Below, in pieces: positions 37,995-51,240 of a stretch of 64,000 nucleotides of DNA; the first letter of the stretch is position 1; each line of letters begins with the position of its first letter. The notes beneath the pieces were generated by a model. The model had not been told where the DNA came from. It saw nothing but the letters and a program-made list of their open reading frames with translations, and did not search any database. The translations under genes were made by a program, and so were the position numbers. Source of the stretch: Candidatus Omnitrophota bacterium (GTDB taxonomy: Bacteria; Omnitrophota; Gorgyraeia; 1-14-0-20-64-10); NCBI GenBank assembly GCA_016177405.1, contig JACOVG010000013.1, positions 1,858 to 65,857 on the forward strand, read 5' to 3'.

Positions 37995-38195
37995 ATCGTG
38001 TGAGGGAAGCCCTGTGACCTGCCTGATGCCGGGCAGGAAGTCAGGCGCGGCCCCGCCACTGTAAGCCCGCCTCCGCCAAAGAAGTTGGCGGAGAACCTTA
38101 GCGCAGATCCAGCCACTGTCCACCAAACAAAATGGCGGATGGGAAGGCGCGCTGAAAGGTCGGGCAAGCCAGGAGACCTCGCGGTGTCCCACATA
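37995..38195 (+). promoter_or_regulatory. Cobalamin (B12) riboswitch
   Basis: 5' GGUGUGAGGGAAGCC; CCCGCCACUGUAAGCC; GCCACUGUCC...GGGAAGGCG; B12 box AAGCCAGGAGACCUCG at 38166-38183; SD GGGGGAGG and ATG 38239 follow. Confidence 0.8.
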
Positions 38196-38238: not shown

Positions 38239-38817
38239 ATGGCCTCGTACTCTCGTAAGAACGAGGCCTGTTTTGTCTCCGGAGGCCGGGGGCAGGGAGG
38301 CCTCATCCTGGTCACCGGGGGGGCGCGGTCCGGAAAAAGCGCCTTCGCCTTGGGGCTTGCCGACCGGGGCGCCTTTAAGAGGCGCCTCTTTGTCGCCACG
38401 GCGGTCGCTTGCGATGGCGAAATGCGCTCCCGCATCGCCCGCCACCGGAGACAGCGAAACGGCGCTTGGGGGCTGCTGGAGGAACCGCTTCGGCTGCCCG
38501 AGCGCCTGCCCCTGAAGGATCTTCCCGCGGGATCGGTTCTCTTGCTGGATTGCCTTCCCACCTTCGTGACCAACCTTCTTCTGGCCAAGGTTTCTCCCTC
38601 CCGGATTGAAAAGAGGCTTGAGGCCCTGGCGGATTGTTTGCGCGCTCCGGGGTTGACGGCGATTGTGGTGACCAATGAGGTGGGCCAGGGGGTGGTGCCG
38701 GGCTCCGCCTTGGGCAGGAGGTTCCGGGATCTTTTAGGAAACGCGAATCAGACCATTGCTTCCCGCGCCGACGGCGTCTACCTGATGGTGGCCGGGATAC
38801 CCATGAGGATCAAATGA
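38239..38817 (+). CDS. cobU: Adenosylcobinamide kinase / adenosylcobinamide-phosphate guanylyltransferase
   Basis: 192 aa, GGARSGKS P-loop. Confidence 0.85.
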   Translation: MASYSRKNEACFVSGGRGQGGLILVTGGARSGKSAFALGLADRGAFKRRLFVATAVACDGEMRSRIARHRRQRNGAWGLLEEPLRLPERLPLKDLPAGSVLLLDCLPTFVTNLLLAKVSPSRIEKRLEALADCLRAPGLTAIVVTNEVGQGVVPGSALGRRFRDLLGNANQTIASRADGVYLMVAGIPMRIK

Positions 38818-39875
38818 CCAACGAACTGCTTTCCCTTCTTGAGATTCCCGCCATCGATGAAAAGGCGCGCTCCGAGGCGAAGAGGCGGGTCGATTCGCTC
38901 ACCAAACCGCTGGGATCGCTGGGCCGGCTGGAGGATCTGGGCGTTGCCCTGGCCGGGATGACCGGGCGGGTCACCCCCACGCTCGAGCGCAAGGTGATTT
39001 TCACCGTGGCCGGGGACCATGGGGTTGTCCGGGAGGGGGTTTCGGCCTTTCCGCAGGAGGTGACGGCTCAGATGGTCCTGAATTTTCTGCGGGGGGGTGC
39101 TGCCATCAACGTCCTGGCTCGCGCGGCTTCCGCCGAGGTTCTGGTGGTGGATGCCGGTGTCGCGGCCGATCTTCCGAAAGCGGACGGGCTCATCCGCGTC
39201 AAGCTTAAGGCCGGCACCGAAAACATGGCCCAAGGCCCGGCCATGTCCCCGGGGGAGGCCCAGGGCATCGTGGAGGAGGGTTTTCGCCTCTTCAAAAGGA
39301 TTCACGCCGCCCGCGCCATAGACGTCGTCGGCTTGGGAGAGATGGGAATCGGCAACACCACCGCCAGCGCGGCCCTGGCGGCGGCCCTGCTGAACGTGGA
39401 GGCCTCTCTCGTTTCCGGGCGCGGCACAGGGCTCACGGACGGTCAGCTTTCCAAGAAGATTCAGGTGATCGACCAGGCCTTGAAGCTCAACCGGCCTGAT
39501 TCCAAGGACCCGATGGATTGTCTGGCCAAGGTGGGCGGTTTTGAGATCGGCTGTCTGGCCGGCATCACCTTAGCGGCCGCCTCGGCCCGGGTTCCGGTGG
39601 TGATGGACGGCTTTATCTCCACCGTGGCGGCCTTCCTGGCCTATCGGATCTCGCCGGCGGTCAAGCCATTTCTCATCGCCGCGCACCGTTCGGTGGAGCC
39701 CGGCCACAGCCTTTTGCTCAACGCCCTGGAGCTTCGGCCCCTCCTGGAGCTTCAGATGCGGCTGGGAGAAGGGACCGGAGCGGCCCTCGCTTTTCAAATC
39801 CTGGAGGCCTCGGTCCGGATCCTTTCGGAGATGGCCACCTTTTCCGAGGCCCAAGTGAGCGAGGGGACACCGTGA
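38814..39875 (+). CDS. cobT: Nicotinate-nucleotide--dimethylbenzimidazole phosphoribosyltransferase
   Basis: 353 aa CobT family. Confidence 0.9.
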   Translation: MTNELLSLLEIPAIDEKARSEAKRRVDSLTKPLGSLGRLEDLGVALAGMTGRVTPTLERKVIFTVAGDHGVVREGVSAFPQEVTAQMVLNFLRGGAAINVLARAASAEVLVVDAGVAADLPKADGLIRVKLKAGTENMAQGPAMSPGEAQGIVEEGFRLFKRIHAARAIDVVGLGEMGIGNTTASAALAAALLNVEASLVSGRGTGLTDGQLSKKIQVIDQALKLNRPDSKDPMDCLAKVGGFEIGCLAGITLAAASARVPVVMDGFISTVAAFLAYRISPAVKPFLIAAHRSVEPGHSLLLNALELRPLLELQMRLGEGTGAALAFQILEASVRILSEMATFSEAQVSEGTP

Positions 39876-40624
39876 AGTTTCTGCGCGCTCTTCAAGATGC
39901 CTTCTCCTTTCTGACCATCGTTCCGGTCGGTTCCAGGGTGGGAGGGTCCGATCCCTCCCTGCGGATGAGCAGGGCCCTTGCCTGGTTTCCCTTGGTGGGG
40001 GCTGCGGTGGGGGCCGCGGGGGCCGGGGTGGCCTGCGGAGCTTTTCGTTTCTTGCCCTGGCCGGTGGCTTCCGGTTTGGGCTTGGCGGCCGCGGTGCTCT
40101 TAACCGGCGCGCTGCACCTGGATGGTTTTGCCGACACCCTGGACGGTCTCGCGGGCGGGAAGGATCGGCAAGAGTGCCGCCGGATCATGGAGGACGCGCG
40201 CGTGGGGGTTTTTGGGGTGGTGGGTTTGATCCTTCTTCTGGGTTTGAGGTGGGAAGCCCTCCAGAGGACGGGACCGAGCCTTGTCCTCGGAACCTGGGTG
40301 ACCGCGGGGTTGTTCAGCCGCTTGGGGATGGTTTTGTCGGCCCAGTTCTTTCCTTATGGTCCGGGCCGGAAGGGTCTGGGCTCCTGGGTGACCGGCCGCA
40401 AGGTTCCCGGCGCGGTGGCCTGGGCGGTTCTTCTGGCGCTGGGGGGCAGTCTCTTCTTCTGGGTCGTCCCCAAGGTTCTGGTGTGGCTGGGTTTGACCCT
40501 CGGGGTGGCGGCGCTTTTCAACACCTGGGTGAAGAGCCGTCTGGGAGGGATCACCGGGGACACCCTGGGGGCCGTGAATGAGATTCTGGAAACGCTCCTG
40601 CTGATGGCCATGGTGGCGGGGTGA
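39872..40624 (+). CDS. cobS: Adenosylcobinamide-GDP ribazoletransferase (cobalamin synthase)
   Basis: 250 aa multi-TM CobS. Confidence 0.85.
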   Translation: MKFLRALQDAFSFLTIVPVGSRVGGSDPSLRMSRALAWFPLVGAAVGAAGAGVACGAFRFLPWPVASGLGLAAAVLLTGALHLDGFADTLDGLAGGKDRQECRRIMEDARVGVFGVVGLILLLGLRWEALQRTGPSLVLGTWVTAGLFSRLGMVLSAQFFPYGPGRKGLGSWVTGRKVPGAVAWAVLLALGGSLFFWVVPKVLVWLGLTLGVAALFNTWVKSRLGGITGDTLGAVNEILETLLLMAMVAG

Positions 40625-41706
40625 GCCCACACGGCGGGAACATCTGGGAGCTGTGCCGGCGCCGCGGCTTCGACCCCCCAGAGGTCCTTGATGTGAGCGC
40701 GGATCTGAACCCCTTGGGCCCGCCGCCGGGCTGGGAGGGGCGGCTCGCGGAAGGCCTCAAGAGTCTGCGTTGGTATCCGGATCCGGATTATCTGGATTTC
40801 CGCCGCGCCGCGGCTTGCCTTCATGGTCTTGAGCCGGAGTGCATCCTGCCCGGCAACGGAACCGCGGAGCTCATTCACCTTGCGGCCGGCGCTTCACGGT
40901 TCCGGCGGGCAGTGGTGGCCGTTCCAACCTTCACCGAATACGAAAGGGCTCTGGCGGGCAGGGGCAAGCCGATTTCTCTCTGGCCCCTTCAGGCGCCCGG
41001 CTTCAGGCCGCCATCCCTTCCCAGCGATTTCTCCGGCTGTGAGAGCGGCTTGATCTTCCTGTGCAACCCCAACAATCCCACCGGCACCCTCTGGCCCAGG
41101 GAGAGCCTGGTGGAGCTTCTGGCGGCGGCCGGCAAACATCAGGCGACGGTGGTGGTGGACGAGGCCTATCTTGATTTTGTTCCTGATCCCGGGCGTTACT
41201 CCATGGCCGGCCAGGTGAAGCATTTTAAGAATCTCATCGTCCTGCGCTCCCTGACCAAATCGTTCGCCCTGCCGGGTTTGAGGATCGGCTACCTGGCGGC
41301 CGAGCCCGGGATGGCCGCGGCGCTGGCCCAGGAACAGCCTCCTTGGTCTCTGAACGCCTTGGCCGCCGGGTTGGGGCCCTGGCTTCTGGAGCAGTCCGGT
41401 CACCTGGCCGAGAGCCGGCGGGAGCTCACGAAACTGCGCTTGGAATTGCTGGAGGACTTGAGGAGCGTGCCCGGCCTTCGAATCCATCCTTCCGAGGCAA
41501 ACTTCTTCTTGTGCGAGCTGACCGACCCGGAGCTCTCGACGCGGGAGATCCGTCAGGCGCTGGAGGGCCAAGGAATCTTGATTCGGACCTGCGACGACTT
41601 TACCGGTCTCACGCCCGGCCGTTTCTTCCGGGTGGCGGTGAAGCCGCGGCGTGAGAACGAACGGCTCATCACCGCGATGAAGGGGCTCTTCGCGCATGCA
41701 AACTGA
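40621..41706 (+). CDS. cobD: L-threonine-O-3-phosphate decarboxylase (CobD/CobC family, HisC-like)
   Basis: HGGNIWEL N-terminus, PLP fold. Confidence 0.8.
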   Translation: MSPHGGNIWELCRRRGFDPPEVLDVSADLNPLGPPPGWEGRLAEGLKSLRWYPDPDYLDFRRAAACLHGLEPECILPGNGTAELIHLAAGASRFRRAVVAVPTFTEYERALAGRGKPISLWPLQAPGFRPPSLPSDFSGCESGLIFLCNPNNPTGTLWPRESLVELLAAAGKHQATVVVDEAYLDFVPDPGRYSMAGQVKHFKNLIVLRSLTKSFALPGLRIGYLAAEPGMAAALAQEQPPWSLNALAAGLGPWLLEQSGHLAESRRELTKLRLELLEDLRSVPGLRIHPSEANFFLCELTDPELSTREIRQALEGQGILIRTCDDFTGLTPGRFFRVAVKPRRENERLITAMKGLFAHAN

Positions 41707-43198
41707 TTTCCTGATGTTCCAGGGGACCGGCTCCCACGTGGGGAAGTCGGTTCTCGCGACCGCCCTGTGCCGGATTCTCCGTCGAAGGGGGATCCGGGCG
41801 GCCCCCTTCAAGGCGATGAACATGTCCAACAACGCCTGGGTCACGCGCGCAGGCGGCGAGATGGCCTATGCCCAGGCGGCGCAGGCCTGGGCCGCCGGCG
41901 TGGAGCCGGCGGTGGAGATGAACCCTGTTCTCCTGAAGCCGGAGGCGGATCACACCTCCTCCCTCATCGTCCTGGGCAAGCCCGAGGGGCGCCTGCCCGC
42001 GATGGGAATCCGGGAGGTTCGCGAGCGCCTGATCCAGGTGATGGAAGAGAGCTTGAACCGGCTTGCTGGGGAGTTTGAGTTCATCGTGATCGAAGGGGCC
42101 GGGTCCCCCGCCGAGGTGAATCTTGCCCAGTGGGATCTGGCGAACATGGCGGTGGCCCGGAAGGTTCGGGCTCCGGTGATTCTGGTGGGGGACATCGAGC
42201 GGGGCGGGGTCTTTGCTCAAATTGTGGGAACGCTCGCCCTGTTGAATCCGGAGGATCTCGGGCTCGTGCGAGGCTTCGTGATCAACAAGTTCCGGGGGGA
42301 GCGGTCCCTGCTGGATCCGGGTTTAACCTGGCTTGAACAGCGGACCGGCCTTCCGGTTTTCGGCGTTGTTCCGTTTCTTCATGACCTTCGGATCCCGCAG
42401 GAGGACGCGGTGGCCTTGTCCGATCCGGCCGCGCCCCTGCCGAAGCCTTCCGCCAACGGCTCCTGGATCCGGATTCAGGTGGTTCGCTACCCCCAGATCG
42501 CGAACTTCACCGATTTTAAGCCGCTAGAAGAGGAGCCCGGGGTCCAGGTGGAGTACCTCACCCGGCCGCCACCGGACGCCCGGCGGCCCCGGCCCCATCT
42601 CTTGATCCTGCCGGGCACGAAGAGCACGGTCTCGGACCTTCAGTGGCTGAGGGAGCGGGGATTCGAGCCGTACTTGAAGAGCTCTCTCCAAGCCGGTGTC
42701 GAGGTGCTCGGGATCTGCGGCGGTTTCCAGATGCTGGGTGAGTGGATTCGCGATCCGGCCCACGTCGAGTCCGCTTACGCCAGCGTGGCGGGTCTGGGGC
42801 TCCTGCCCGCCTCCACGCGGTTTACGCCTGCCAAGGTGACGGTTCAGGTGGAGGGGGTCCACCCGGAAAGCGGGCTGACCATTCGGGGCTACGAGCTTCA
42901 TGCCGGTTGTCTTGAGGCGAACCATAAGGGAGAGCCGGTTTTCCGGATCACCCGCCGGGGCGGCCAAGCGGCCGACGGTTGGGACGGCTGCCGCCTGGCC
43001 GATCTACCGGTCTGGGGCACCTACCTGCATGGGCTCTTTGATGAGCCCGGCTTCAGGCGCTGGTTTCTGAATCGGCTGCTTCCCCGGGGGGGAGAGGGTG
43101 CGGGTGAGGGAGGGGACCCTTACGATTTCCTGGCCGATCAGGTGGAAAAGGCTCTTAACCTTTCGGAGATTCTTCCTCTATGGAAGCCATCGGTCTAA
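41696..43198 (+). CDS. cobQ: Cobyric acid synthase
   Basis: 500 aa, CobQ/CbiP GATase. Confidence 0.9.
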   Translation: MQTDFLMFQGTGSHVGKSVLATALCRILRRRGIRAAPFKAMNMSNNAWVTRAGGEMAYAQAAQAWAAGVEPAVEMNPVLLKPEADHTSSLIVLGKPEGRLPAMGIREVRERLIQVMEESLNRLAGEFEFIVIEGAGSPAEVNLAQWDLANMAVARKVRAPVILVGDIERGGVFAQIVGTLALLNPEDLGLVRGFVINKFRGERSLLDPGLTWLEQRTGLPVFGVVPFLHDLRIPQEDAVALSDPAAPLPKPSANGSWIRIQVVRYPQIANFTDFKPLEEEPGVQVEYLTRPPPDARRPRPHLLILPGTKSTVSDLQWLRERGFEPYLKSSLQAGVEVLGICGGFQMLGEWIRDPAHVESAYASVAGLGLLPASTRFTPAKVTVQVEGVHPESGLTIRGYELHAGCLEANHKGEPVFRITRRGGQAADGWDGCRLADLPVWGTYLHGLFDEPGFRRWFLNRLLPRGGEGAGEGGDPYDFLADQVEKALNLSEILPLWKPSV

Positions 43199-44124
43199 GG
43201 ATCGTCTTGGCCTACGGCTTGGATCTCCTGCTGGGAGATCCGGCCTGGCTGCCTCATCCGATCCGGGGCTTAGGCTGGGTGATCGAAAGCTCCGAGGCCG
43301 CCCTCCGGCGCCTGATCCGCAGTGAGCTTTTGGGCGGCATTCTTCTTGTTCTTCTGATCGGCGGGGGGACTTGGGGCCTGGTGGGGTTTGTGGTGGGTTG
43401 GGCGGCGCGGATTTCGCCGCTTTTTGCCCTGGGGATGGAGGCGGCCTTCCTCTATATCTGCTTGTCCACCAAGGATCTGGCGGTGGAAAGCTGGCCGGTC
43501 TTCCGCGCCCTGGAGCGAGGGGATCTGCCGTTGGCCAGGCGGAAGCTTTCCATGATCGTGGGAAGGGACACCGGGGAGCTTGACGAACCGGAGGTGACCC
43601 GCGGCACGGTGGAAACGATCGGCGAGAGCCTCATGGATGGCGTGGTCTCACCCCTGTTTTACGCCGCCATCGGCGGGGTGGGGCTGGCCTGCTGTTACAA
43701 GGCGGTCAACACCCTCGATTCCATGGTGGGATACCGGTCGAGCCGTTACCTCCGCTTTGGAAAGGCGTCGGCGGCCGTTGACCGGTGTATGAACGCCCTC
43801 CCCGCCTGGATCACGGCCGGCCTCATCGCGGCGGCCGCGGGATTGCTGGGCTTGCCGGGAGGCGGTTCTCTTCGGGCGTTTCTCAAGAATCCCAGGGCGC
43901 GCCAGGAGAACTCCTGGATCCCCGAGGCGGCGATGGCCGGAGCGCTGGGGGTCCGGTTGGGCGGGGTCAACCGGTATCAGGGTCTTGCCGTTGAAACCCC
44001 TTTTCTGGGTGAGCCGCTTAGGCCGTTAGGCCGGGCGGTCATTCCCCAGGCGATCCGGGTGATGTGGATGGCCTCGGGGCTGTCCCTTTTCGCGGCGCTG
44101 GGCTTGGCTGGGCTTATCCGATGA
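43180..44124 (+). CDS. cbiB: Adenosylcobinamide-phosphate synthase
   Basis: 314 aa membrane CbiB/CobD. Confidence 0.85.
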   Translation: MEAIGLRIVLAYGLDLLLGDPAWLPHPIRGLGWVIESSEAALRRLIRSELLGGILLVLLIGGGTWGLVGFVVGWAARISPLFALGMEAAFLYICLSTKDLAVESWPVFRALERGDLPLARRKLSMIVGRDTGELDEPEVTRGTVETIGESLMDGVVSPLFYAAIGGVGLACCYKAVNTLDSMVGYRSSRYLRFGKASAAVDRCMNALPAWITAGLIAAAAGLLGLPGGGSLRAFLKNPRARQENSWIPEAAMAGALGVRLGGVNRYQGLAVETPFLGEPLRPLGRAVIPQAIRVMWMASGLSLFAALGLAGLIR

Positions 44125-47100
44125 CCAGGGTCCCCAGGCTTCTCATCGCCGGAACGGCGAGCGGGGCGGGCAAGACCACCGTGACCTTGGGGCTGGCGGC
44201 GCTTTTAAGACAAAAGGGTCTGGTGGTCCAGCCGTTTAAGGCGGGCCCGGACTACATCGATTCCGCTTATCACACCCAGGCGGCCGGACGCCCCTGCCGG
44301 AATCTGGACGCCTGGCTCGTTCCCTCCGGCTCCTTGAACGCCATCCTGACCGGGGCGGCCCAGGGGGCCGACCTGTCTTTGGTGGAAGGGATGATGGGCC
44401 TGTTCGATGGGATCGGGCCCACCGGGGAGGAGGCCAGCACCGCGGAGCTGGCCAAGAAGCTCGCCTTGCCGGTTCTTTTGGTGGTGGACGCGGGCTCTTT
44501 CTCCCGCTCGGCCGCCGCCCTGGTGAGAGGCTTCAGGGATTTCGACCGGAAGGTCAAGATCGCCGGCTGTTTCCTGAACCGGGTTTCCTCGGAAGCCCAT
44601 GCCCTCCTGGTGAAGAGGGGGATTGAGACCCTGGCCGGGGTGCCGGTGGTCGGCTTTCTGCCCCAGGACGGCCGCCTTCGGCTGCCCGAGCGCCACCTGG
44701 GGCTGGTCCCTTCCGTCGAGCAAAAGGGCTGGCAGAGGATTCTGGCTCTCCTGGTCAAGCAGATGGAGCACAGCGTGGATGCCGAGGCTCTGCTGCGCTT
44801 GGCCCGGCGCGCGCCCCCCTTGGAGGCAGCAGCTATTTTAGGGTCATTGCGAGGAGCCGGCCAGAGGCTGGCGACGAAGCAATCTCAGGGATTGCTTCGC
44901 CCCTTCGGGGCTCGCAATGACATGAGGAGGGTGCCCATCGCGGTCGCCAGGGACGAGGCGTTTCACTTTTATTATCCGGAAAATTTGGAGCTTCTTGAAA
45001 AGTTCGGGGCGGAGATGGTTCCCTTCAGCCCCCTAAAGGATCGGAGCCTTCCGCGGGGGGCTGCCGGGCTCTATCTGGGAGGGGGATTCCCCGAGGTTTT
45101 CGCCGAGCCGCTTTCCAGGAACGCTTCCCTCCATCGGGAGATTCGGGAGAAGGCGGCCGCTGGGCTGCCCACCTATGCCGAGTGCGGGGGTTTGATGTAT
45201 CTTTCGCGAAGCATCCGTTCCACAAAGAGAAGGAGCTTTTCCATGGTGGGACTTGTCCCGGCCGAGATTCGGATGACCGACCGGCTTCAGCATTTCGGAT
45301 ACAAGAAACTTCGGGCTTGCCGGACCACGGTCCTGGCGAGGGCAGGGGAGAAGGCCAGGGGCCACGAGTTCCATCACTCGCAAGCCGTGGGGATTCCCGT
45401 GGAGGAGCGGGCCCCTTATGAGGCCCGGTCGGCCGGCGGCGAGGGCAGGCGCCTGGAGGGGTATGCCTACGGCAGTCTCCTGGCTTCCTATGTCCACCTT
45501 CATTTCATGAGCCAGCCGGCTTGGGCTAAGCGGTTGGTTGAGGCCGCGCGCCGCTGGTCAGGAGTTCTTCTTTTTCTCACCGCTTACAGCTTGCAGCTTA
45601 TCGCCGTCTCTTTCGCGGAGGAGCCGACCCGCCTGGAGGAGGTGGTCGTCACCGCCACCAAGGCCAAGACCCCGGCCAAGGAGGTGACCCGGGCGGTTTC
45701 GGTGATACCGGCCGAGCGCTTAAGCGTCGTCAAGGGAGGATTTGTCTCGCAGGGCTTGAGCGACGTGCCGGAGACCCTGGTCCGCCGGACCGGGTCCATC
45801 GGACGCACGACGGCTGTGGTGATTCGGGGGGCGTCGGCGACCCAGGTCCATGTGACCGTGGATGGCGCCCATGTGGCCAGCCCAACCACCGGCTCCTTCG
45901 ATTTCAACCATTTCACGCCGGATAATCTGGAACGGATCGAGATCCTCCGCGGGCCCGGCAGCACCCTCTACGGCGCGGACGCCATGGGAGGCGTGATCAA
46001 TCTCGTCACCCGGCGCGGCGAAGGGCCGTTCACCTTCTCCGCCACCTCGGAGTATGGCACCCTTTTGGACACCTTTCGGGAAGCCGCCTCCATGCAAGGG
46101 GCCTCGGGGCCGTGGCATCTGTCGGCCTCCTCCTCCCGGATGGACGCCAACGGCCTAAGCCAGAACGACGACTACCAAAATCTGAATCTTTCCACACGGA
46201 TTGGCTATGACCTGCCCAACCAGGCAACGGCGGATCTGACCCTGCGCCACATCTGGGCCGTGGTCGGGGTGGACGACGGCCCCTTTCGCCCGGACACGAA
46301 CCGGAGGGACCGGGAACGGCAGACCATCGGGACGGTCCGCCTGGAAGCCCCGGTGACGGCCTGGTGGAGCCAAACCTGGCGCTTCTCCACGGCCATCTCG
46401 AACTTCATCGACAACGATCCCTCCAACGGCGGCACCCAAACCGACAGCCTCTTCAAGCTGGATACCGAGCGCTATGGCGCCGAATGGATGAACCGCTTCA
46501 CTCCGGTTTCCTGGGACGCGCTGACCGTGGGTCTGGAGTTCGAAGACCGGGAGGCCGACAACCGGAGTTTTTCGAAAACCCAGGTCACGCGCGCCGCCTA
46601 CCTCCAGAATCAGTGGCGGCCCGTTGATCCCCTGACGGTGGTTGCCGGTTTCCGGTTCTTTCGGGAGAGCGCCTTCGGCAGCGATCAGGTCTTCGACCTG
46701 TCGGCGGCCTATTTCCACGAGCCCTGGGGTCTCAAGGCGCGCGGGGGCTATGGCCAGGGCTTCCGTCCTCCCACCCTGAACGAGCTTTTCTTTCCCGGCT
46801 TTGGTGTCCCCAACCTCTCTCCGGAAAAGAGCGAAACCTGGGAGATGGGCTTTGACCAGGTGCTCTGGGACAACCGGATCAATTGGTCCGGCACCCTCTT
46901 TCGGACGGAGTACGAGGATCTGATTCAGACCGTCCGGGTCTCGTCCACCGTTTCCGCGCCTCAAAATGTGGGCAAGTCGAGGATTCGCGGGGCGGAGCTG
47001 GAGCTTGAGCTCAAACCCTGGGACCCTTGGACCTTGACCGGCTCCTACACCCACCTGGAGGCCAACGAGGATCCCAGCGACGAGGAGCTCTTGAGGGTGC

Positions 47101-47384
47101 CCAAGAACACCGTGGGCTTCAGCGCGGGGTTTGCCCCCTCCAAGAGGTGGGACGCCCGCCTGGAGGGACTGCTGGTCTCAAGCCGGGAGGAGTCCACCGG
47201 CACCAACTCCCGCAACAAGACCAAGGGGTACCTCAAGCTCGATGCCCTGCTGCAGTACCGCTTCAAGCCGTGGTTGAGAGGCCATTTGAGGGTGGACAAC
47301 CTGACCGACCGCCAGTATGCCGAGGTGCTGGGTTTTCCGGCCGAGGGGCTCGCGGCCTCCGTGGGGCTGACGGTGGAGCGATGA
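44121..47384 (+). CDS. cbiA: Cobyrinic acid a,c-diamide synthase (CbiA/CobB, first ~460 aa) reading through without stop into a TonB-dependent receptor
   Basis: ATG 44121 overlaps the cbiB stop; CbiA homology ends near ...YVHLHFMSQPAWAKRLVEAARRW; same frame continues into the receptor. Confidence 0.7.
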   Translation: MTRVPRLLIAGTASGAGKTTVTLGLAALLRQKGLVVQPFKAGPDYIDSAYHTQAAGRPCRNLDAWLVPSGSLNAILTGAAQGADLSLVEGMMGLFDGIGPTGEEASTAELAKKLALPVLLVVDAGSFSRSAAALVRGFRDFDRKVKIAGCFLNRVSSEAHALLVKRGIETLAGVPVVGFLPQDGRLRLPERHLGLVPSVEQKGWQRILALLVKQMEHSVDAEALLRLARRAPPLEAAAILGSLRGAGQRLATKQSQGLLRPFGARNDMRRVPIAVARDEAFHFYYPENLELLEKFGAEMVPFSPLKDRSLPRGAAGLYLGGGFPEVFAEPLSRNASLHREIREKAAAGLPTYAECGGLMYLSRSIRSTKRRSFSMVGLVPAEIRMTDRLQHFGYKKLRACRTTVLARAGEKARGHEFHHSQAVGIPVEERAPYEARSAGGEGRRLEGYAYGSLLASYVHLHFMSQPAWAKRLVEAARRWSGVLLFLTAYSLQLIAVSFAEEPTRLEEVVVTATKAKTPAKEVTRAVSVIPAERLSVVKGGFVSQGLSDVPETLVRRTGSIGRTTAVVIRGASATQVHVTVDGAHVASPTTGSFDFNHFTPDNLERIEILRGPGSTLYGADAMGGVINLVTRRGEGPFTFSATSEYGTLLDTFREAASMQGASGPWHLSASSSRMDANGLSQNDDYQNLNLSTRIGYDLPNQATADLTLRHIWAVVGVDDGPFRPDTNRRDRERQTIGTVRLEAPVTAWWSQTWRFSTAISNFIDNDPSNGGTQTDSLFKLDTERYGAEWMNRFTPVSWDALTVGLEFEDREADNRSFSKTQVTRAAYLQNQWRPVDPLTVVAGFRFFRESAFGSDQVFDLSAAYFHEPWGLKARGGYGQGFRPPTLNELFFPGFGVPNLSPEKSETWEMGFDQVLWDNRINWSGTLFRTEYEDLIQTVRVSSTVSAPQNVGKSRIRGAELELELKPWDPWTLTGSYTHLEANEDPSDEELLRVPKNTVGFSAGFAPSKRWDARLEGLLVSSREESTGTNSRNKTKGYLKLDALLQYRFKPWLRGHLRVDNLTDRQYAEVLGFPAEGLAASVGLTVER
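45507..47384 (+). CDS. TonB-dependent outer-membrane receptor, BtuB-like (candidate independent start at internal ATG 45507)
   Basis: Signal-like MSQPAWAKRLVEAARRWSGVLLFLTAYSLQLIAVSFA, TonB box EEVVVTA, plug domain IRGASATQV...GGVINLVTRRG, beta-barrel. Confidence 0.6.
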   Translation: MSQPAWAKRLVEAARRWSGVLLFLTAYSLQLIAVSFAEEPTRLEEVVVTATKAKTPAKEVTRAVSVIPAERLSVVKGGFVSQGLSDVPETLVRRTGSIGRTTAVVIRGASATQVHVTVDGAHVASPTTGSFDFNHFTPDNLERIEILRGPGSTLYGADAMGGVINLVTRRGEGPFTFSATSEYGTLLDTFREAASMQGASGPWHLSASSSRMDANGLSQNDDYQNLNLSTRIGYDLPNQATADLTLRHIWAVVGVDDGPFRPDTNRRDRERQTIGTVRLEAPVTAWWSQTWRFSTAISNFIDNDPSNGGTQTDSLFKLDTERYGAEWMNRFTPVSWDALTVGLEFEDREADNRSFSKTQVTRAAYLQNQWRPVDPLTVVAGFRFFRESAFGSDQVFDLSAAYFHEPWGLKARGGYGQGFRPPTLNELFFPGFGVPNLSPEKSETWEMGFDQVLWDNRINWSGTLFRTEYEDLIQTVRVSSTVSAPQNVGKSRIRGAELELELKPWDPWTLTGSYTHLEANEDPSDEELLRVPKNTVGFSAGFAPSKRWDARLEGLLVSSREESTGTNSRNKTKGYLKLDALLQYRFKPWLRGHLRVDNLTDRQYAEVLGFPAEGLAASVGLTVER

Positions 47385-47773
47385 CCCTGGCTATGAGTTG
47401 GGGGCTTGTGCGGTGCGCCGGAGTCTTACTGATGCTGGGGCTGGCGGCGGGGTGCGCGACGGTGCCGAGAGAGTTTCCGGTGACGCTGGAGGTGGACTAT
47501 GGCCCAGCCGGAAAGCCGGCCATCCATGAGACGGTCATCGTCTCTCGTGGGGCGACGCCGGAGGCGGCCACCACCGCGGTTTTCCCGATTGAGAAAGGGT
47601 CGGTCTGCTGTGACCCCCGGGAGACCTCTGCCATCGACGGAGTGGCTGCCGATCCCGCGGCCAACCGCTGGTGGGTGGTCTCGGTGAACGGCTCGAAGAA
47701 GGTCTCCCCCTATAAAACCAAACTCAAGCTGGGTGACAAGATCCGTTGGGAATACCGCCAATATGAGCAGTAA
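47381..47773 (+). CDS. Small lipoprotein with transcobalamin-beta/DUF4430-like motif (putative corrinoid-binding)
   Basis: Lipobox LGLAAGC; C-terminus RWWVVSVNGSKKVSPYKTKLKLGDKIRWEYRQY. Confidence 0.55.
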   Translation: MTLAMSWGLVRCAGVLLMLGLAAGCATVPREFPVTLEVDYGPAGKPAIHETVIVSRGATPEAATTAVFPIEKGSVCCDPRETSAIDGVAADPAANRWWVVSVNGSKKVSPYKTKLKLGDKIRWEYRQYEQ

Positions 47774-48476
47774 GATGAGAGCCGGCTTTTTCACACTCCT
47801 CTTGTTGGCGTCCGCCTCTTCCGGGTACGCGCAGGAGGTTCGTGGAAGGGTGAGGGTCGATGGTTCACCGCCTGCCCAAGAGACGATCACGATTCAGGCC
47901 AAGAGCAAGGCGTATCCCATCGAGGGCTGCGGGCCGATTCAGAAGGCTTCGCCGAAGCTCGAGGTGAGCGCCGCTGGCGGGGTTAAAAACGCTGTGGTCT
48001 GGGCGGAGATTCCAGCTCAGGTCCAGCCAGAGCCCCTTCATCTCCTGATGGACCAGAAGGCGTGCGTTTTCAGCCCTCATGTCGTGGCCGCCGCGGCGGG
48101 TCAATCGTTGGCGATCCGGAACTCCGACCGAGTGATCCACAACGTCCGGATCTTCCGGGAGGGCAGGCCCGAGATGCTGATGCACCGGTGGCAGAAGGTG
48201 GATGGGGCCGACATCGTCTGGAGATTTGATGAACCGGGCCGGTACCTCGTCCGGTGCGGGGTCCACCCTTGGATGTACGGCTGGGTCTTCGTCGCCCCCG
48301 GGCGGTCCGTTGCCGTGACGGATGAAGAGGGACGCTTCGAGCTGACCGGTCTGCCGGAGGGCCGACATACCCTCCGCGTCTGGCATGAGACGCTGGGAAA
48401 CCGGGAGCTTGAGATGGAGGTAGGGAGCCAACCCCTGGATCTTGCCCCGGTGGTTTTTCCAAAGAAGGAGGCCTGA
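47763..48476 (+). CDS. Secreted cupredoxin-like (type-1 Cu site-like) plus CarboxypepD_reg-like domain protein
   Basis: Signal peptide; HNV...YLVRCGVHPWMYG; C-terminal VTDEEGRFELTGLPEGRHTLRVWHE. Confidence 0.55.
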   Translation: MSSKMRAGFFTLLLLASASSGYAQEVRGRVRVDGSPPAQETITIQAKSKAYPIEGCGPIQKASPKLEVSAAGGVKNAVVWAEIPAQVQPEPLHLLMDQKACVFSPHVVAAAAGQSLAIRNSDRVIHNVRIFREGRPEMLMHRWQKVDGADIVWRFDEPGRYLVRCGVHPWMYGWVFVAPGRSVAVTDEEGRFELTGLPEGRHTLRVWHETLGNRELEMEVGSQPLDLAPVVFPKKEA

Positions 48477-49096
48477 TGTTTTACGAGTGGTTTAAGCTGG
48501 GCGGCCCGGTGATGTGGGCGTTGCTCGCCTGTTCCATCGTGGCGCTCACGGTGATCAGCGAGCGGTTCTTCTTTTGGAGGGAGATCCGGCGCTCGCGGGA
48601 CGCCGGCGCCGTGGAGTCGATGCTGGCGCTCATCGAGCAGGGGCAAATCTCCCAGGCGCTGGCCAGGGGACGCGCCCTCTCCGATCCGGTGGCCCGGGTG
48701 CTGACCCGCGGCCTGGAGCATTGGCCCGCGGCCGTGACCGGCGCCCTGGAGGCCCAGGCCCAGGAGGAGCTGCGGCCGATGCGCCGGTACCTCGGCGTTC
48801 TGGAGACGACCATCACCCTGGCTCCGCTTTTGGGCATCTACGGAACGATCACCGGCATGATCCGGGCCTTCGGTTTCTTGAGCCGGGCCGGGATCACCGA
48901 CCCCCATCAGGTGGCCGCGGGGATCGCCGAGGCGCTGATCACCACGGCGGCTGGGCTGACCATTGCGATTGTCAGCATTCCGCCGTACAATTTCTTCACC
49001 GCCAAGACCGAGGAGGTGGCGCACGACATGGAGCGCCAGGCGACGGCGCTTGAGCTCTTGGCGGGGCGCAAACGATCGGCGGAGGGTTCCTCGTGA
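48476..49096 (+). CDS. exbB: MotA/TolQ/ExbB proton-channel protein
   Basis: 206 aa, 3 TM. Confidence 0.85.
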   Translation: MFYEWFKLGGPVMWALLACSIVALTVISERFFFWREIRRSRDAGAVESMLALIEQGQISQALARGRALSDPVARVLTRGLEHWPAAVTGALEAQAQEELRPMRRYLGVLETTITLAPLLGIYGTITGMIRAFGFLSRAGITDPHQVAAGIAEALITTAAGLTIAIVSIPPYNFFTAKTEEVAHDMERQATALELLAGRKRSAEGSS

Positions 49097-49509
49097 GGAT
49101 TTATTTTCCCCGTTCCTCGAAACCTAGGATCGAGATGATTCCCCTGATCGATGCCTTCTTCCTGCTGTTGGCCTTCTTCATGTCGTCGGTGATCACCATG
49201 GAGGTGGTTCAGGGGCTTCCGCTGGAACTGCCGCGGGCCGGGCCTTCCAAACCGCTGGCGTCAGGTGACCGGTGGATGGTGACCGTTACCCGGGAGGGCG
49301 CGGTTCAGCTTGAGGGGCGGGCGGTGACCTTGGAGGAATTGCGCTCGCGTTTGGCGGGCCATCCGGATCTGGAGTCGCTTCGGGTGGGCATTCGTGCCGA
49401 TCAGGCCACCCCTTACGAACGGGTGGTGCAGGTGTTGGCGGCGGCCCAGGCCAGCGGGGTCAAACGGGTTAACCTGCTGACCTCCGGCCGAAAGGAAAAG
49501 GAACGTTGA
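49093..49509 (+). CDS. exbD: Biopolymer transport protein ExbD/TolR
   Basis: 138 aa; IPLIDAFFLLLAFFM. Confidence 0.85.
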   Translation: MRIYFPRSSKPRIEMIPLIDAFFLLLAFFMSSVITMEVVQGLPLELPRAGPSKPLASGDRWMVTVTREGAVQLEGRAVTLEELRSRLAGHPDLESLRVGIRADQATPYERVVQVLAAAQASGVKRVNLLTSGRKEKER

Positions 49510-50039
49510 GCTTAAGGTTGGCGAAATCCGCCCTGCTGTCGGCTGGGGTGCATGCCCTGTTCATTCTCCCCGCCATCCACTTCGGCTTGGCCGGCGCTCC
49601 TCCCAAGGCGGACGTGGTTCGGGGCCGGGCAATCCTGGAGCTGGAGTGGGTGGACCCCCAGCCCTTGGACAAAGAGGAAGGGGAAGAGGAGCAGCGGGAG
49701 AAGTTGGGATTCAAGCCCCAGGAGGCGGTGGTGACCCCGGGGGCTTTTTCGGTGGCCGCGCCGGCGGGTTTTCGCAATCCGGCGCCGGCCTATCCCTGGG
49801 CGGCGAGGCTTCGAGGCTGGCAGGGAACGGTGGTGCTTCGGGTTTCGGTCGCCGCCTCCGGTCTGCCGGAGAGGGTGGAGATCGCCGTAAGCTCGGGCCA
49901 CGCGGTTTTGGATCAGGCGGCCCTGGAGGCTTTAAGGGCTTGGCGGTTTGTTCCGGCTCGGAAGGGCTCTCAAGCGGTGGCTGGGGTGGTGGAGATTCCG
50001 GTGACATTCAAATTGGATGAATCGAAGGAGGAGTTATGA
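49506..50039 (+). CDS. tonB: Energy transducer TonB
   Basis: TTG start; N-terminal TM, Glu/Pro linker, TonB-C GTVVLRVSVAASGLPERVEIAVSSGHAVLDQAALEALRAWRF. Confidence 0.75.
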   Translation: MSLRLAKSALLSAGVHALFILPAIHFGLAGAPPKADVVRGRAILELEWVDPQPLDKEEGEEEQREKLGFKPQEAVVTPGAFSVAAPAGFRNPAPAYPWAARLRGWQGTVVLRVSVAASGLPERVEIAVSSGHAVLDQAALEALRAWRFVPARKGSQAVAGVVEIPVTFKLDESKEEL

Positions 50040-50548
50040 AGCTGACTTGGGTTCTGGTGGCGGTGGGGGGTTTGATGGCGGCGGCGTTTCAACATGAACT
50101 GGGCGCGGCTCCCATCTTGGGTGCTCTCTTGTGCGCGGCCTGCTTCTTGAGGCCTCGGGATCTTTTCTGGGTGGGCTTGGGCGGGATGCTGGTTCGTGAG
50201 CTCGCGATCGGCATTTCCGTCTTCAGCGCGGTGCGCCTGGTCGCGGTGGCGCTGGTGGCGGCGGCGCTGGTGGCCCTGAAGGTTCGCCCCAGCTTTCGCT
50301 CCATCCTGACTGGACTGCTGGTTTCCTCGCCGATCTTTCATCTGTCCCTTTCGGTTGGAGACTGGCTGACCGGCTTCTGCGGCGTTTGGCCCAAGACGGC
50401 CGCGGGCTTGACCGGAGCGATTGTCACGGCGCTGCCTTACTTTCAGCGGTCGCTGGTCGGAGATTTCCTTTTCTCCAGCCTCTTCTTGGGGCTCTACACC
50501 GGTTTGGCTTATTGGACCACCGCGGTCCGGACCCGCGCCGCTTCGTGA
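50036..50548 (+). CDS. Polytopic inner-membrane protein, family unassigned
   Basis: 170 aa, ~5 TM, translationally coupled between the two TonB genes. Confidence 0.5.
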   Translation: MKLTWVLVAVGGLMAAAFQHELGAAPILGALLCAACFLRPRDLFWVGLGGMLVRELAIGISVFSAVRLVAVALVAAALVALKVRPSFRSILTGLLVSSPIFHLSLSVGDWLTGFCGVWPKTAAGLTGAIVTALPYFQRSLVGDFLFSSLFLGLYTGLAYWTTAVRTRAAS

Positions 50549-51240
50549 GACTGAAAGGGGCCCTGGGCTGGTCGTTGGCGCTCCACGCGGGAGTGCTGGC
50601 CCTGCCTTTGCCGCGCGGCTTCATCGCTTACGTCCCGACCGGCAAGCCCCTTTCCGTTACCTTTATGGGATCTCCGTCTGTCGCAGCAGCGGCGGCGGCC
50701 GCGAAGCAGGCGGCTGTGAAAGCCCAGGATTTGGTGGAGGTCAAGCGCCCCTCGGTAAGCCCTGCCGCGGCGGCCGTCGAAAAACCCCGGCGGGCTCCGC
50801 CTCCGGCCCCGGCCCGGCTTGAGAAACCGGCGCCCAAACCCGCCGCTCCGGCTCCGTCCCGGAAGGAGTTGGCCGGGCCGCTCAAGGGTCCGGCGCCGCC
50901 TGAACATCAAGCGGAGAGATCCCGGGATGACGGCGGGGCGTCAATCCAGATGCTGTCGGGCTCTTTCCTCTCCCTGGAGCATCGGCAAAAGGTGAGGGAA
51001 CACCTGAAGGGCCGCTTGACCTTTCCGGCGGTCTGGATTCGGGGTTTTGTCCATATGCGCTTGACCCTGGAGCCCGAAGGGCGGTTGGTGACTGCCCAGG
51101 TTCTGGAGAGCTCTGACCCCAAGCTTTCCGAGGCTGCCCTCCGGGAGGTCCAGCAGGCGGCCCCTTATCCCGCCTTCTCCCGCGACGTTTCCGAGGCCGC
51201 CCTCCAGTACGACTTCCTCATCCGCTACGAGCCCGACTAA
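50545..51240 (+). CDS. Second TonB-C/TolA-like domain protein with Ala/Pro-rich linker
   Basis: GTG 50545 overlaps the upstream stop; C-terminal GFVHMRLTLEPEGRLVTAQVLESS...AAPYPAF. Confidence 0.6.
   Translation: MRLKGALGWSLALHAGVLALPLPRGFIAYVPTGKPLSVTFMGSPSVAAAAAAAKQAAVKAQDLVEVKRPSVSPAAAAVEKPRRAPPPAPARLEKPAPKPAAPAPSRKELAGPLKGPAPPEHQAERSRDDGGASIQMLSGSFLSLEHRQKVREHLKGRLTFPAVWIRGFVHMRLTLEPEGRLVTAQVLESSDPKLSEAALREVQQAAPYPAFSRDVSEAALQYDFLIRYEPD

Follow-up and report, generated by a model that had tools for sequence, protein, structure and literature searches.

The 64,000-nucleotide stretch analysed here (the window; positions 1,858 to 65,857 of contig JACOVG010000013.1, assembly GCA_016177405.1, from Candidatus Omnitrophota bacterium) contains a riboswitch-headed cobalamin operon in which the gene for the cobyrinate a,c-diamide synthase CbiA continues, in one reading frame, into a BtuB-like TonB-dependent receptor of the outer membrane. 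The open reading frame (ORF) runs on the plus strand from 44064 to 47384 without an internal stop, as seen in the ORF list and in the raw sequence, and encodes 1106 amino acids from GTG 44064, the codon from which residue numbers such as W498 and A518 are counted. Four Pfam domains follow one another in the order CbiA (27-212), GATase_3 (292-484), Plug (538-644) and TonB_dep_Rec_b-barrel (697-1080). The real start is most likely ATG 44121, with a predicted product of 1087 amino acids, since this codon forms an ATGA overlap with the stop of cbiB and the homologues begin with M-x-x-P-R-L-L-I-A-G-T. At the junction the protein reads HLHFMSQPAWAKRLVEAARRW-SGVLLFLTAYSLQLIAVSFA-EEPTRLEEVVVTA or, with a longer right-hand portion, HLHFMSQPAWAKRLVEAARRW, SGVLLFLTAYSLQLIAVSFA and EEPTRLEEVVVTATKAK. 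A preliminary description of this DNA had already reported one uninterrupted frame for cbiA and receptor; ORF list, raw sequence and Pfam domains bear this out, and the junction letters given there are the same as found here. Spurious ORFs are plentiful in this GC-rich DNA and a long open frame alone is weak evidence; we judge the feature to be non-chance because the identical in-frame join is present in 11 other independent assemblies.

Two complete halves joined by a leader-like linker

By family, the N-terminal half is a genuine cobyrinate a,c-diamide synthase, for which amidation at positions a and c is predicted. It lies above the curated threshold of the NCBIfam model NF002204 (519.6 vs. 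a cut-off of 254) and above that of TIGR00379 (473.8 vs. 261.4), while the model of the related Ni-sirohydrochlorin amidase family reaches 430.7 and stays below its cut-off of 560. The P-loop GTASGAGKTT and the amidotransferase-Cys motif YAECGGLMYL are in place, and G30-T39 and C374 are invariant in the 11 fused homologues; a PDB sequence search with the CbiA half gave no match. Because TIGR00379 is covered almost to the end of the model (positions 1-447 of 449, ending at residue 476 of 499 counted from ATG 44121), CbiA is finished only a few residues (2-4) before a hydrophobic core begins. Aligning CbiA orthologues to locate the expected stop, as had been proposed in the preliminary description, places the ends of the standalone CbiAs 5-20 residues past the same helix. 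AlphaFold2 models this helix at residues 485-505, with a predicted local distance difference test score (pLDDT) of ~80 up to residue 500; W498 occupies a conserved aromatic position in the alignment, and R496 and R497, the basic end of this last helix of CbiA, double as the n-region of a signal peptide.

The linker consists of a 21-residue uncharged run that is preceded by RR and ends in S-F-A before EE. With RR as basic n-region, SGVLLFLTAYSLQLIAV as hydrophobic h-region and small residues at -3 and -1, it has the anatomy of a Sec leader cleaved by signal peptidase I. Across the fused genes the linker measures ~15-30 residues and varies in sequence, every insertion or deletion preserves the frame, and an equivalent hydrophobic segment is kept in 12 of 12 genes despite these indels; in all of them basic residues lead into a hydrophobic core, and the linker closes with an AxA-like motif ~7-10 residues ahead of the TonB box. 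The cores of the fused junctions have a hydrophobicity of 2.68, compared with 2.62 in 36 N-terminal signal peptides of unfused relatives (p=0.63). Since they are as hydrophobic as these genuine leaders, the export signal seems to be maintained and export competence still to be selected. A separately initiated N-terminal Sec leader was not found for the receptor: its leader is internal, with neither a stop nor a start preceded by a Shine-Dalgarno (SD) sequence upstream.

From this segment onwards the receptor is built as the preliminary description had it, with the signal-peptide-like stretch followed by the TonB box EEVVVTA and a plug (Pfam Plug, 77 bits; TonB_dep_Rec_b-barrel, 155.5 bits), and AlphaFold2 places a long series of barrel strands at residues 657-1105. 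The best NCBIfam family is TIGR01779 (TonB-B12), yet the score of 217.2 remains below the BtuB equivalog cut-off of 599.7, and NF007926 likewise does not reach its equivalog threshold (144.8 vs. 836). The nearest solved structure is Escherichia coli BtuB (PDB 1NQE and related entries; E 5e-30; query residues 6-141 against chain residues 5-141), and since mature residue 6 aligns to mature BtuB residue 5, the predicted mature N-terminus coincides with that of BtuB. Judged by these matches the receptor is BtuB-like and it stands in a riboswitch-controlled B12 operon; with regard to its corrinoid specificity, the sequence is compatible with cobalamin, cobinamide or an earlier corrinoid.

Recurrence of the fusion

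Among 5.8 billion proteins, the search picked out ten (P0001-P0010; 1067-1096 amino acids) with the same CbiA, Plug and barrel domains in one ORF, at 44-68% identity and 98% coverage. They stem from metagenome-assembled genomes at NCBI (Candidatus Omnitrophica) and from JGI, ENA and Logan assemblies, with P0003, P0005 and P0009 going back to SRR2238xxxx runs; an eleventh fused relative, contig L093, came from a metagenome scan, and the loci of the fused relatives show the same operon context throughout. An exact-sequence look-up found no identical record of the window protein elsewhere. The exhaustive search of representative proteins had no full-length fusion among its best 150 matches, the top ones being a standalone receptor (P0121; 616 amino acids, own leader MRRIVFVFWVVAAASWVSMNGVSSA/EEPTR) and a standalone CbiA (P0122). 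A profile search of genome contigs found the CbiA fusion in 0 of 80 loci; its matches were dominated by the generic receptor motif LYG[SA][DK]A[MI]GG.

Near the junction there is neither a hidden stop in any frame nor a slippery site. Translation past the end of CbiA would meet the next stop after 44 codons in the +1 frame and after 123 in the -1 frame, and therefore no single indel could recreate two normal genes. These distances, the 11 other assemblies and the conserved aromatic residue W498 rule out a sequencing or indel artefact, so that the error or recent mutation considered in the preliminary description finds no support. Its suggestion of a lost cbiA stop is correct in that the stop is gone, but the route would be an evolutionary deletion of stop, riboswitch or spacer and receptor ribosome-binding site (RBS) and not an error. 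On balance, the evidence favours the third option named there, a genuinely unusual coupling.

Unfused relatives and origin of the fusion

Besides the fused genes, we found ~47 clusters of standalone receptors with 52-74% identity to the mature receptor, most of them with ordinary N-terminal leaders; the counts of ~12 fused and ~47 unfused clusters are approximate, as they are pooled from several searches, one of which listed no fused protein among its best 120 matches. Other Omnitrophota with a standalone pair (L090 from GCA_023248095.1; L092, L098, L100, L101 and L103; P0265-P0310, P0121 and P0122) share the operon, a CbiA with ~62% identity, a receptor with 52-74% identity, the TonB box motif EEPTR.EEVVVTATKAKTPAK and a signal peptide of equal quality. 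In contrast to these two-gene loci, the window has no stop, no spacer, no SD and no receptor Met. Two unfused arrangements can be distinguished. In five loci (L092, L098, L100, L101, L103) a second cobalamin riboswitch (58-89 bits) lies between cbiA and the receptor, followed by an SD and an ATG, and in L090 both genes abut directly (...atg gga agg aat TAA t ATG...), with the stop one nucleotide from the ATG and the SD (GGAAGGA) inside the end of cbiA. In addition, cbiA and receptor of L097 (2788-2990) are already in the same frame with only two stops between them (...NWEIGMLLTKRK, stop, KTRG, stop, GMRHHRWWLC...), an arrangement that resembles the last stage before an in-frame fusion. The fused loci have neither an intergenic riboswitch nor a spacer; since the window, L001 and L002 keep the operon-head riboswitch only, fusion goes along with the loss of a separate B12 control of the receptor.

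In a neighbour-joining tree of the receptor parts, which carries no support values, the fused genes fall in at least eight places. The interleaving of fused and unfused genes rests on the table of pairwise identities, according to which most fused genes have an unfused relative at least as close as their nearest fused one. In the clade P0008-P0010, the fusion and both halves have stayed intact through divergence to 68-82% identity, the nearest unfused relative being at 53-60%. The fusion is apparently a derived minority state that has arisen several times.

Two further observations concern the boundary between both states. The receptor bodies of L091 (1-520) and L093 (1-600) are 98.6% identical in DNA from the VTRAVSV codons onwards and their 5' ends are unrelated: L091 starts with a riboswitch tail, a strong SD and an ATG (unfused), L093 with a cbiA fused in frame. 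This break just after the TonB box would reflect either recombination, a very recent rearrangement or a chimeric contig. Moreover, five receptors called as standalone (P0277, P0280, P0298, P0307, P0309) start at a Met in or near the TonB box and have no room for a leader, and P0280 is closely similar to the receptor half of the fused P0003; the explanation may be a wrongly called start, truncation at a contig edge or a hidden variant of the junction.

Initiation signals at the junction

All unfused receptor genes that we inspected (10 of 10) start with an ATG behind an SD, with a free energy of the anti-SD duplex of -6.4 to -11.9 kcal/mol. For the fused genes, candidate starts that keep the basic n-region and the whole core range from +1.9 to -6.4 kcal/mol, and nearly all are no better than the ORF background of -4.4. 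The exceptions, at the weak end of the unfused range, are GTG 9456 of L001 (-5.6, AAGGA-N8-GTG) and GTG 3945 of L083 (-6.4). In the window, ATG 45507 has +1.0 kcal/mol and TTG 45534, a second in-frame candidate that had previously gone unmentioned, -3.4 kcal/mol, against a mean ORF background of -4.4. The preliminary description was right that ATG 45507 lacks an obvious SD. As the internal start that it proposed, this codon is poorly supported: its position is taken by M, L, F, G, Y or W across the homologues, no SD precedes it, and the resulting leader of 37 residues would contain the last helix of CbiA. In the window gene, P0004 and P0005, the ancestral receptor Met is lost and the n-region is replaced by CbiA's own ARRW or ARKW. 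Because there is no stop codon in between, every ribosome on cbiA must run on into the receptor.

Operon context

The coordinates of all features are collected in Table 1. The RF00174 copy at the head of the operon is the only riboswitch within the window, and consequently the fused receptor has no separate riboswitch control. The order of the late cobalamin genes is shared with the homologous loci L001 and L002, and the downstream uptake set is also found behind the fused gene in L001, L002, L083-L085 and L089. Stop/start overlaps of the ATGA type join cbiB to cbiA (44121-44124) and the receptor to the DUF4430 lipoprotein (47381-47384). Most genes of the operon overlap, several of them without an SD, and these overlaps and missing SDs therefore indicate termination-reinitiation coupling and strong compaction. 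The operon (38239-50548) comprises only late steps (CbiA, CobQ, CbiB, CobD-type aminotransferase, CobU, CobT, CobS) and uptake; the annotation covered the operon, and within it there are no corrin-ring genes. The presence of CbiA inside such a salvage-like operon suggests import of incompletely amidated corrinoids. Downstream of tonB, a second ORF with a weak TonB_C match (50386-51240, plus strand, 29 bits) overlaps the end of the DUF6580 gene, and the L001 locus likewise contains two TonB_C genes.

Table 1. Features of the fused gene, its operon and the intergenic riboswitches of unfused relatives (window coordinates unless a locus is named)
Feature	Position	Strand	Basis
Cobalamin riboswitch, operon head	38003..38179	+	Rfam RF00174, 58.6 bits vs. 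gathering 31.5
Late cobalamin genes, overlapping ends	38239..44124	+	Pfam, all above cut-offs
cobU	38239-38817	+	Pfam
cobT	38814-39875	+	Pfam
cobS	39872-40624	+	Pfam
Class I/II aminotransferase (CobD-type)	40621-41706	+	Pfam
cobQ	41696-43198	+	Pfam
cbiB	43180-44124	+	Pfam
CbiA moiety (cobyrinate a,c-diamide synthase by family), complete	44121..45557	+	ATG 44121 to W498; NCBIfam/TIGR
Candidate internal starts ATG 45507, TTG 45534	45507..45536	+	In frame, leave full leader; inside CbiA C-terminal helix
Predicted internal signal-peptide core, SGVLLFLTAYSLQLIAV (h-region) and SFA (c-region)	45558..45617	+	Leader anatomy, hydrophobicity
Predicted signal peptidase I site, after A518	between 45617 and 45618	+	-3/-1 residues
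Predicted mature BtuB-like TonB-dependent receptor (stop 47382-47384)	45618..47384	+	Pfam, TIGR01779, BtuB structure match
TonB box EEVVVTA	45636-45656	+	Motif
Plug	45675-45995	+	Pfam
Beta-barrel	46152-47303	+	Pfam
Downstream uptake genes	47381..50548	+	Pfam; overlap read from sequence
DUF4430 lipoprotein (ATGA overlap with receptor stop)	47381-47773	+	Pfam
CarboxypepD_reg-like	47733-48476	+	Pfam
exbB	48476-49096	+	Pfam
exbD	49093-49509	+	Pfam
tonB	49506-50039	+	Pfam
DUF6580 membrane protein	50036-50548	+	Pfam
Second cobalamin riboswitch, L092	2713-2888		58-89 bits (range of the five)
Second cobalamin riboswitch, L098	136-354		As above
Second cobalamin riboswitch, L100	177-372		As above
Second cobalamin riboswitch, L101	2657-2890		As above
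Second cobalamin riboswitch, L103	2710-2874		As above

A receptor behind DUF6580 in Thermoanaerobaculia

The genome-contig scan aimed at the CbiA fusion also brought up a locus from Thermoanaerobaculia (L082, 5395-7761, plus strand), in which a single ORF encodes a DUF6580 membrane protein, the segment RRQLLRGG-LPVGLAVALVLLPGALA/AQQ, a TonB box, a plug and a barrel. This single-ORF form comprises more than 110 clusters with 56-100% identity (P0384-P0503), includes contigs of 2.9-4.1 Mb and is the dominant form in the class. A Met within the 12-45 residues before the TonB box occurs in only 14 of 112 clusters, and L082 has no ATG, GTG or TTG upstream of the n-region; its GTG and TTG codons are confined to the hydrophobic core. 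Since the junction Met is mostly absent, the receptor of this family would have little chance of being made other than as the C-terminal portion of a longer precursor, and the existence of such a large, stable family makes the same mechanism credible for CbiA and its receptor. Arguably, the DUF6580 family is the bigger finding of the two.

Discussion

Read directly from the genes, the cbiA-receptor fusion occurs repeatedly, has lost the SD and the riboswitch of the receptor and has retained a signal peptide of normal quality. We consider it somewhat better than an even chance (roughly 55%) that the gene is translated into one precursor, whose internal signal peptide hands the receptor half to Sec and is cleaved after A518 by signal peptidase I, with CbiA remaining on the cytoplasmic side. 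According to this scenario, a deletion would have taken the cbiA stop, the spacer (which holds the second cobalamin riboswitch in relatives) and the start region of the receptor, and would have brought the hydrophobic core of the receptor signal peptide into frame behind the basic C-terminal helix of CbiA. Ribosomes starting at ATG 44121 would then produce the 1087-residue precursor, in which CbiA folds in the cytoplasm and the internal signal peptide, RRW-SGVLLFLTAYSLQLIAV-SFA, enters SecYEG as a hairpin with its N-terminus inside. This N-in/C-out geometry is that of bitopic proteins with large cytoplasmic N-domains. The receptor part of ~590 residues would be translocated, released by a cut between A518 and E519 and passed on to periplasmic chaperones and the beta-barrel assembly machinery, and CbiA would remain at the cytoplasmic face of the membrane, where the hydrophobic remnant of the leader would initially anchor it, beside the membrane proteins CbiB and CobS. 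As an outcome, the receptor would be expressed under the single upstream riboswitch, without an RBS of its own and in a 1:1 ratio with CbiA. The verdict of the preliminary description that a cytoplasmic enzyme fused to an outer-membrane barrel is topologically implausible thus applies only to an unprocessed fusion; topology poses no obstacle to a precursor with an internal signal peptide.

Several points weigh against such a processed precursor. A usable in-frame ATG, GTG or TTG exists in every fused gene, with an SD-like AAGGA 8 nt before GTG 9456 in L001 and -6.4 kcal/mol at GTG 3945 in L083, and the clade P0008-P0010 keeps a Met directly before the basic n-region. The c-region of P0004, AWGA/EP, is no textbook -3/-1 site. 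The interleaving of fused and unfused genes is also what one would expect of short-lived, mildly deleterious accidental fusions. The AlphaFold2 model, built on an 11-sequence alignment, has a mean pLDDT of 63.6, drops below 50 over residues 502-620 and contains no confident packing or interface between the domains; it has low confidence exactly at the linker and is silent on export behind a soluble domain. Finally, although a signal peptide that follows a folded soluble domain of ~480 residues could plausibly drive export, we know of no documented case for an outer-membrane barrel.

The first of these points leads to the main alternative, which we regard as unlikely, though deserving attention, namely that the receptor precursor arises from an in-frame start within the junction (in the window, ATG 45507 or TTG 45534) and that the read-through product is tolerated, degraded or also processed. 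At least one in-frame candidate upstream of the hydrophobic core in every fused gene, the AAGGA-N8-GTG of L001 (-5.6), the Met in front of an R-rich n-region in P0008-P0010 and the ancestral M retained after a full CbiA tail in P0001 and P0006 are all in line with such internal initiation. However, the candidates occupy different positions from gene to gene, chance alone should place start-type codons in leaders rich in Val, Leu and Met, and an SD is absent except for the two GTG codons of L001 and L083. Furthermore, the junction offers no stop codon for termination-reinitiation coupling of the kind used elsewhere in the operon, the analogous DUF6580 family mostly does without a junction Met, and the fate of the obligatory full-length product would be left unexplained. 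Internal initiation is least improbable for L001 and for the Met-retaining clade P0008-P0010, and both routes could coexist.

That the fusions are non-functional accidents, i.e., recent and mildly deleterious deletions or assembly chimeras in which receptor and/or CbiA is effectively a pseudogene, appears improbable to us. The fused genes are a minority (~12 vs. ~47 clusters) scattered over the tree, with an unfused relative mostly as close or closer; the fused L093 and the unfused L091 differ at the 5' end only, and the exact window protein has no record elsewhere, all of which would suit an accident. On the other hand, neither half is damaged, the catalytic and structural motifs are without exception invariant down to 44% identity, the signal peptide is undegraded and all linker indels keep the frame. 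The clade P0008-P0010 has remained fused while diverging to 68-82%, and the unfused gene closest to it is 53-60% identical. Clean deletions, with sizes up to ~200 nt, account for the junctions and do not resemble sequencing errors, and the same architecture comes from at least 10 unrelated samples and assemblers. We give hardly any credit to an unprocessed, tethered or bitopic full-length protein as the functional form, as an outer-membrane barrel of 22 strands cannot stay tied to a cytoplasmic domain by a linker of ~25 residues across inner membrane, periplasm and peptidoglycan. The same holds for a programmed frameshift or termination event that ends CbiA, for example at the out-of-frame TAA of the window (45527-45529), which gives no direct support. 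This candidate was rejected, since a slippery site of the type X_XXY_YYZ is absent from 8 of the 11 fused genes including that of the window, no heptamer is conserved, and the distances to out-of-frame stops vary erratically among the fused genes (0 to 281 codons).

If the receptor is indeed released from a precursor, Sec and signal peptidase would be able to free an outer-membrane barrel that follows a folded cytoplasmic domain of ~480 residues, which makes these genes a natural experiment on internal signals. It would also tie corrinoid import to the first amidation step by a new kind of "Rosetta-stone" link, and the cargo may be an incompletely amidated corrinoid instead of finished B12. 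One further step, doubtful but possible, is that a single translation yields both the outer-membrane receptor and a CbiA that the leader keeps tail-anchored in the inner membrane, where CbiB, CobS and the corrinoid importer would join it in a salvage metabolon. Should this tail-anchor idea and the interpretation of the DUF6580 family both be true, streamlined bacteria would have a general, unrecognised route to express outer-membrane receptors without their own start or regulator. The series from riboswitch-separated over abutting to fused genes would illustrate how deletional streamlining strips regulator and RBS while the gene is kept. In case of internal initiation, the locus would represent rare same-frame nested genes with an obligatory read-through product. 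For annotation, caution is advisable: entries of ~1,090 amino acids named "cobyrinate a,c-diamide synthase" (NCBI calls P0002 just that) and of ~770 amino acids named "TonB-dependent receptor" would, with a cleaved precursor, hide two products.

We found no description of a CbiA-receptor or DUF6580-receptor fusion in the searchable literature. Neither the bona fide CbiA nor the BtuB-like receptor is out of the ordinary in itself; the unusual elements are the exported outer-membrane barrel as a fusion partner and the leader as a linker. Among cobalamin gene fusions in Pfam architectures, CbiA is a frequent N-terminal partner, and the other C-terminal fusions (CbiA-CbiC, CbiA-CbiM, CbiA-aminotransferase, CbiA-CobU and others) share this order; their partners are cytoplasmic or inner-membrane proteins of the same pathway with an unproblematic topology, and in contrast to the gene described here none of them is exported. 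Compared with E. coli BtuB, the receptor has the same TonB box ~6-8 residues past the (here predicted) leader cleavage site, the plug and barrel, ~590 mature residues and the B12 context, whereas BtuB possesses its own N-terminal leader and the window receptor scores well under the TIGR01779 cut-off. The DUF6580 family resembles the fusion more closely, as a B12-type receptor follows another protein of a B12 locus in one frame, with RR, a hydrophobic stretch and AxA/QQ before the TonB box; it differs in having an inner-membrane protein upstream and in being a dominant and apparently ancient form instead of a scattered minority. A cleaved polyprotein is reportedly known from Bradyrhizobium japonicum, where Thony-Meyer and colleagues are said to have described the cytochrome b/c1 protein FbcH around 1989-1991: one ORF with an internal signal peptide reportedly gives rise to two mature proteins on different sides of the membrane. 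FbcH is said to combine a polytopic membrane protein upstream with a periplasmic-facing cytochrome downstream, whereas here a soluble amidotransferase precedes an outer-membrane barrel; the single ORF and the leader-like linker of such a polyprotein are seen in the window gene, and its cleavage is predicted.

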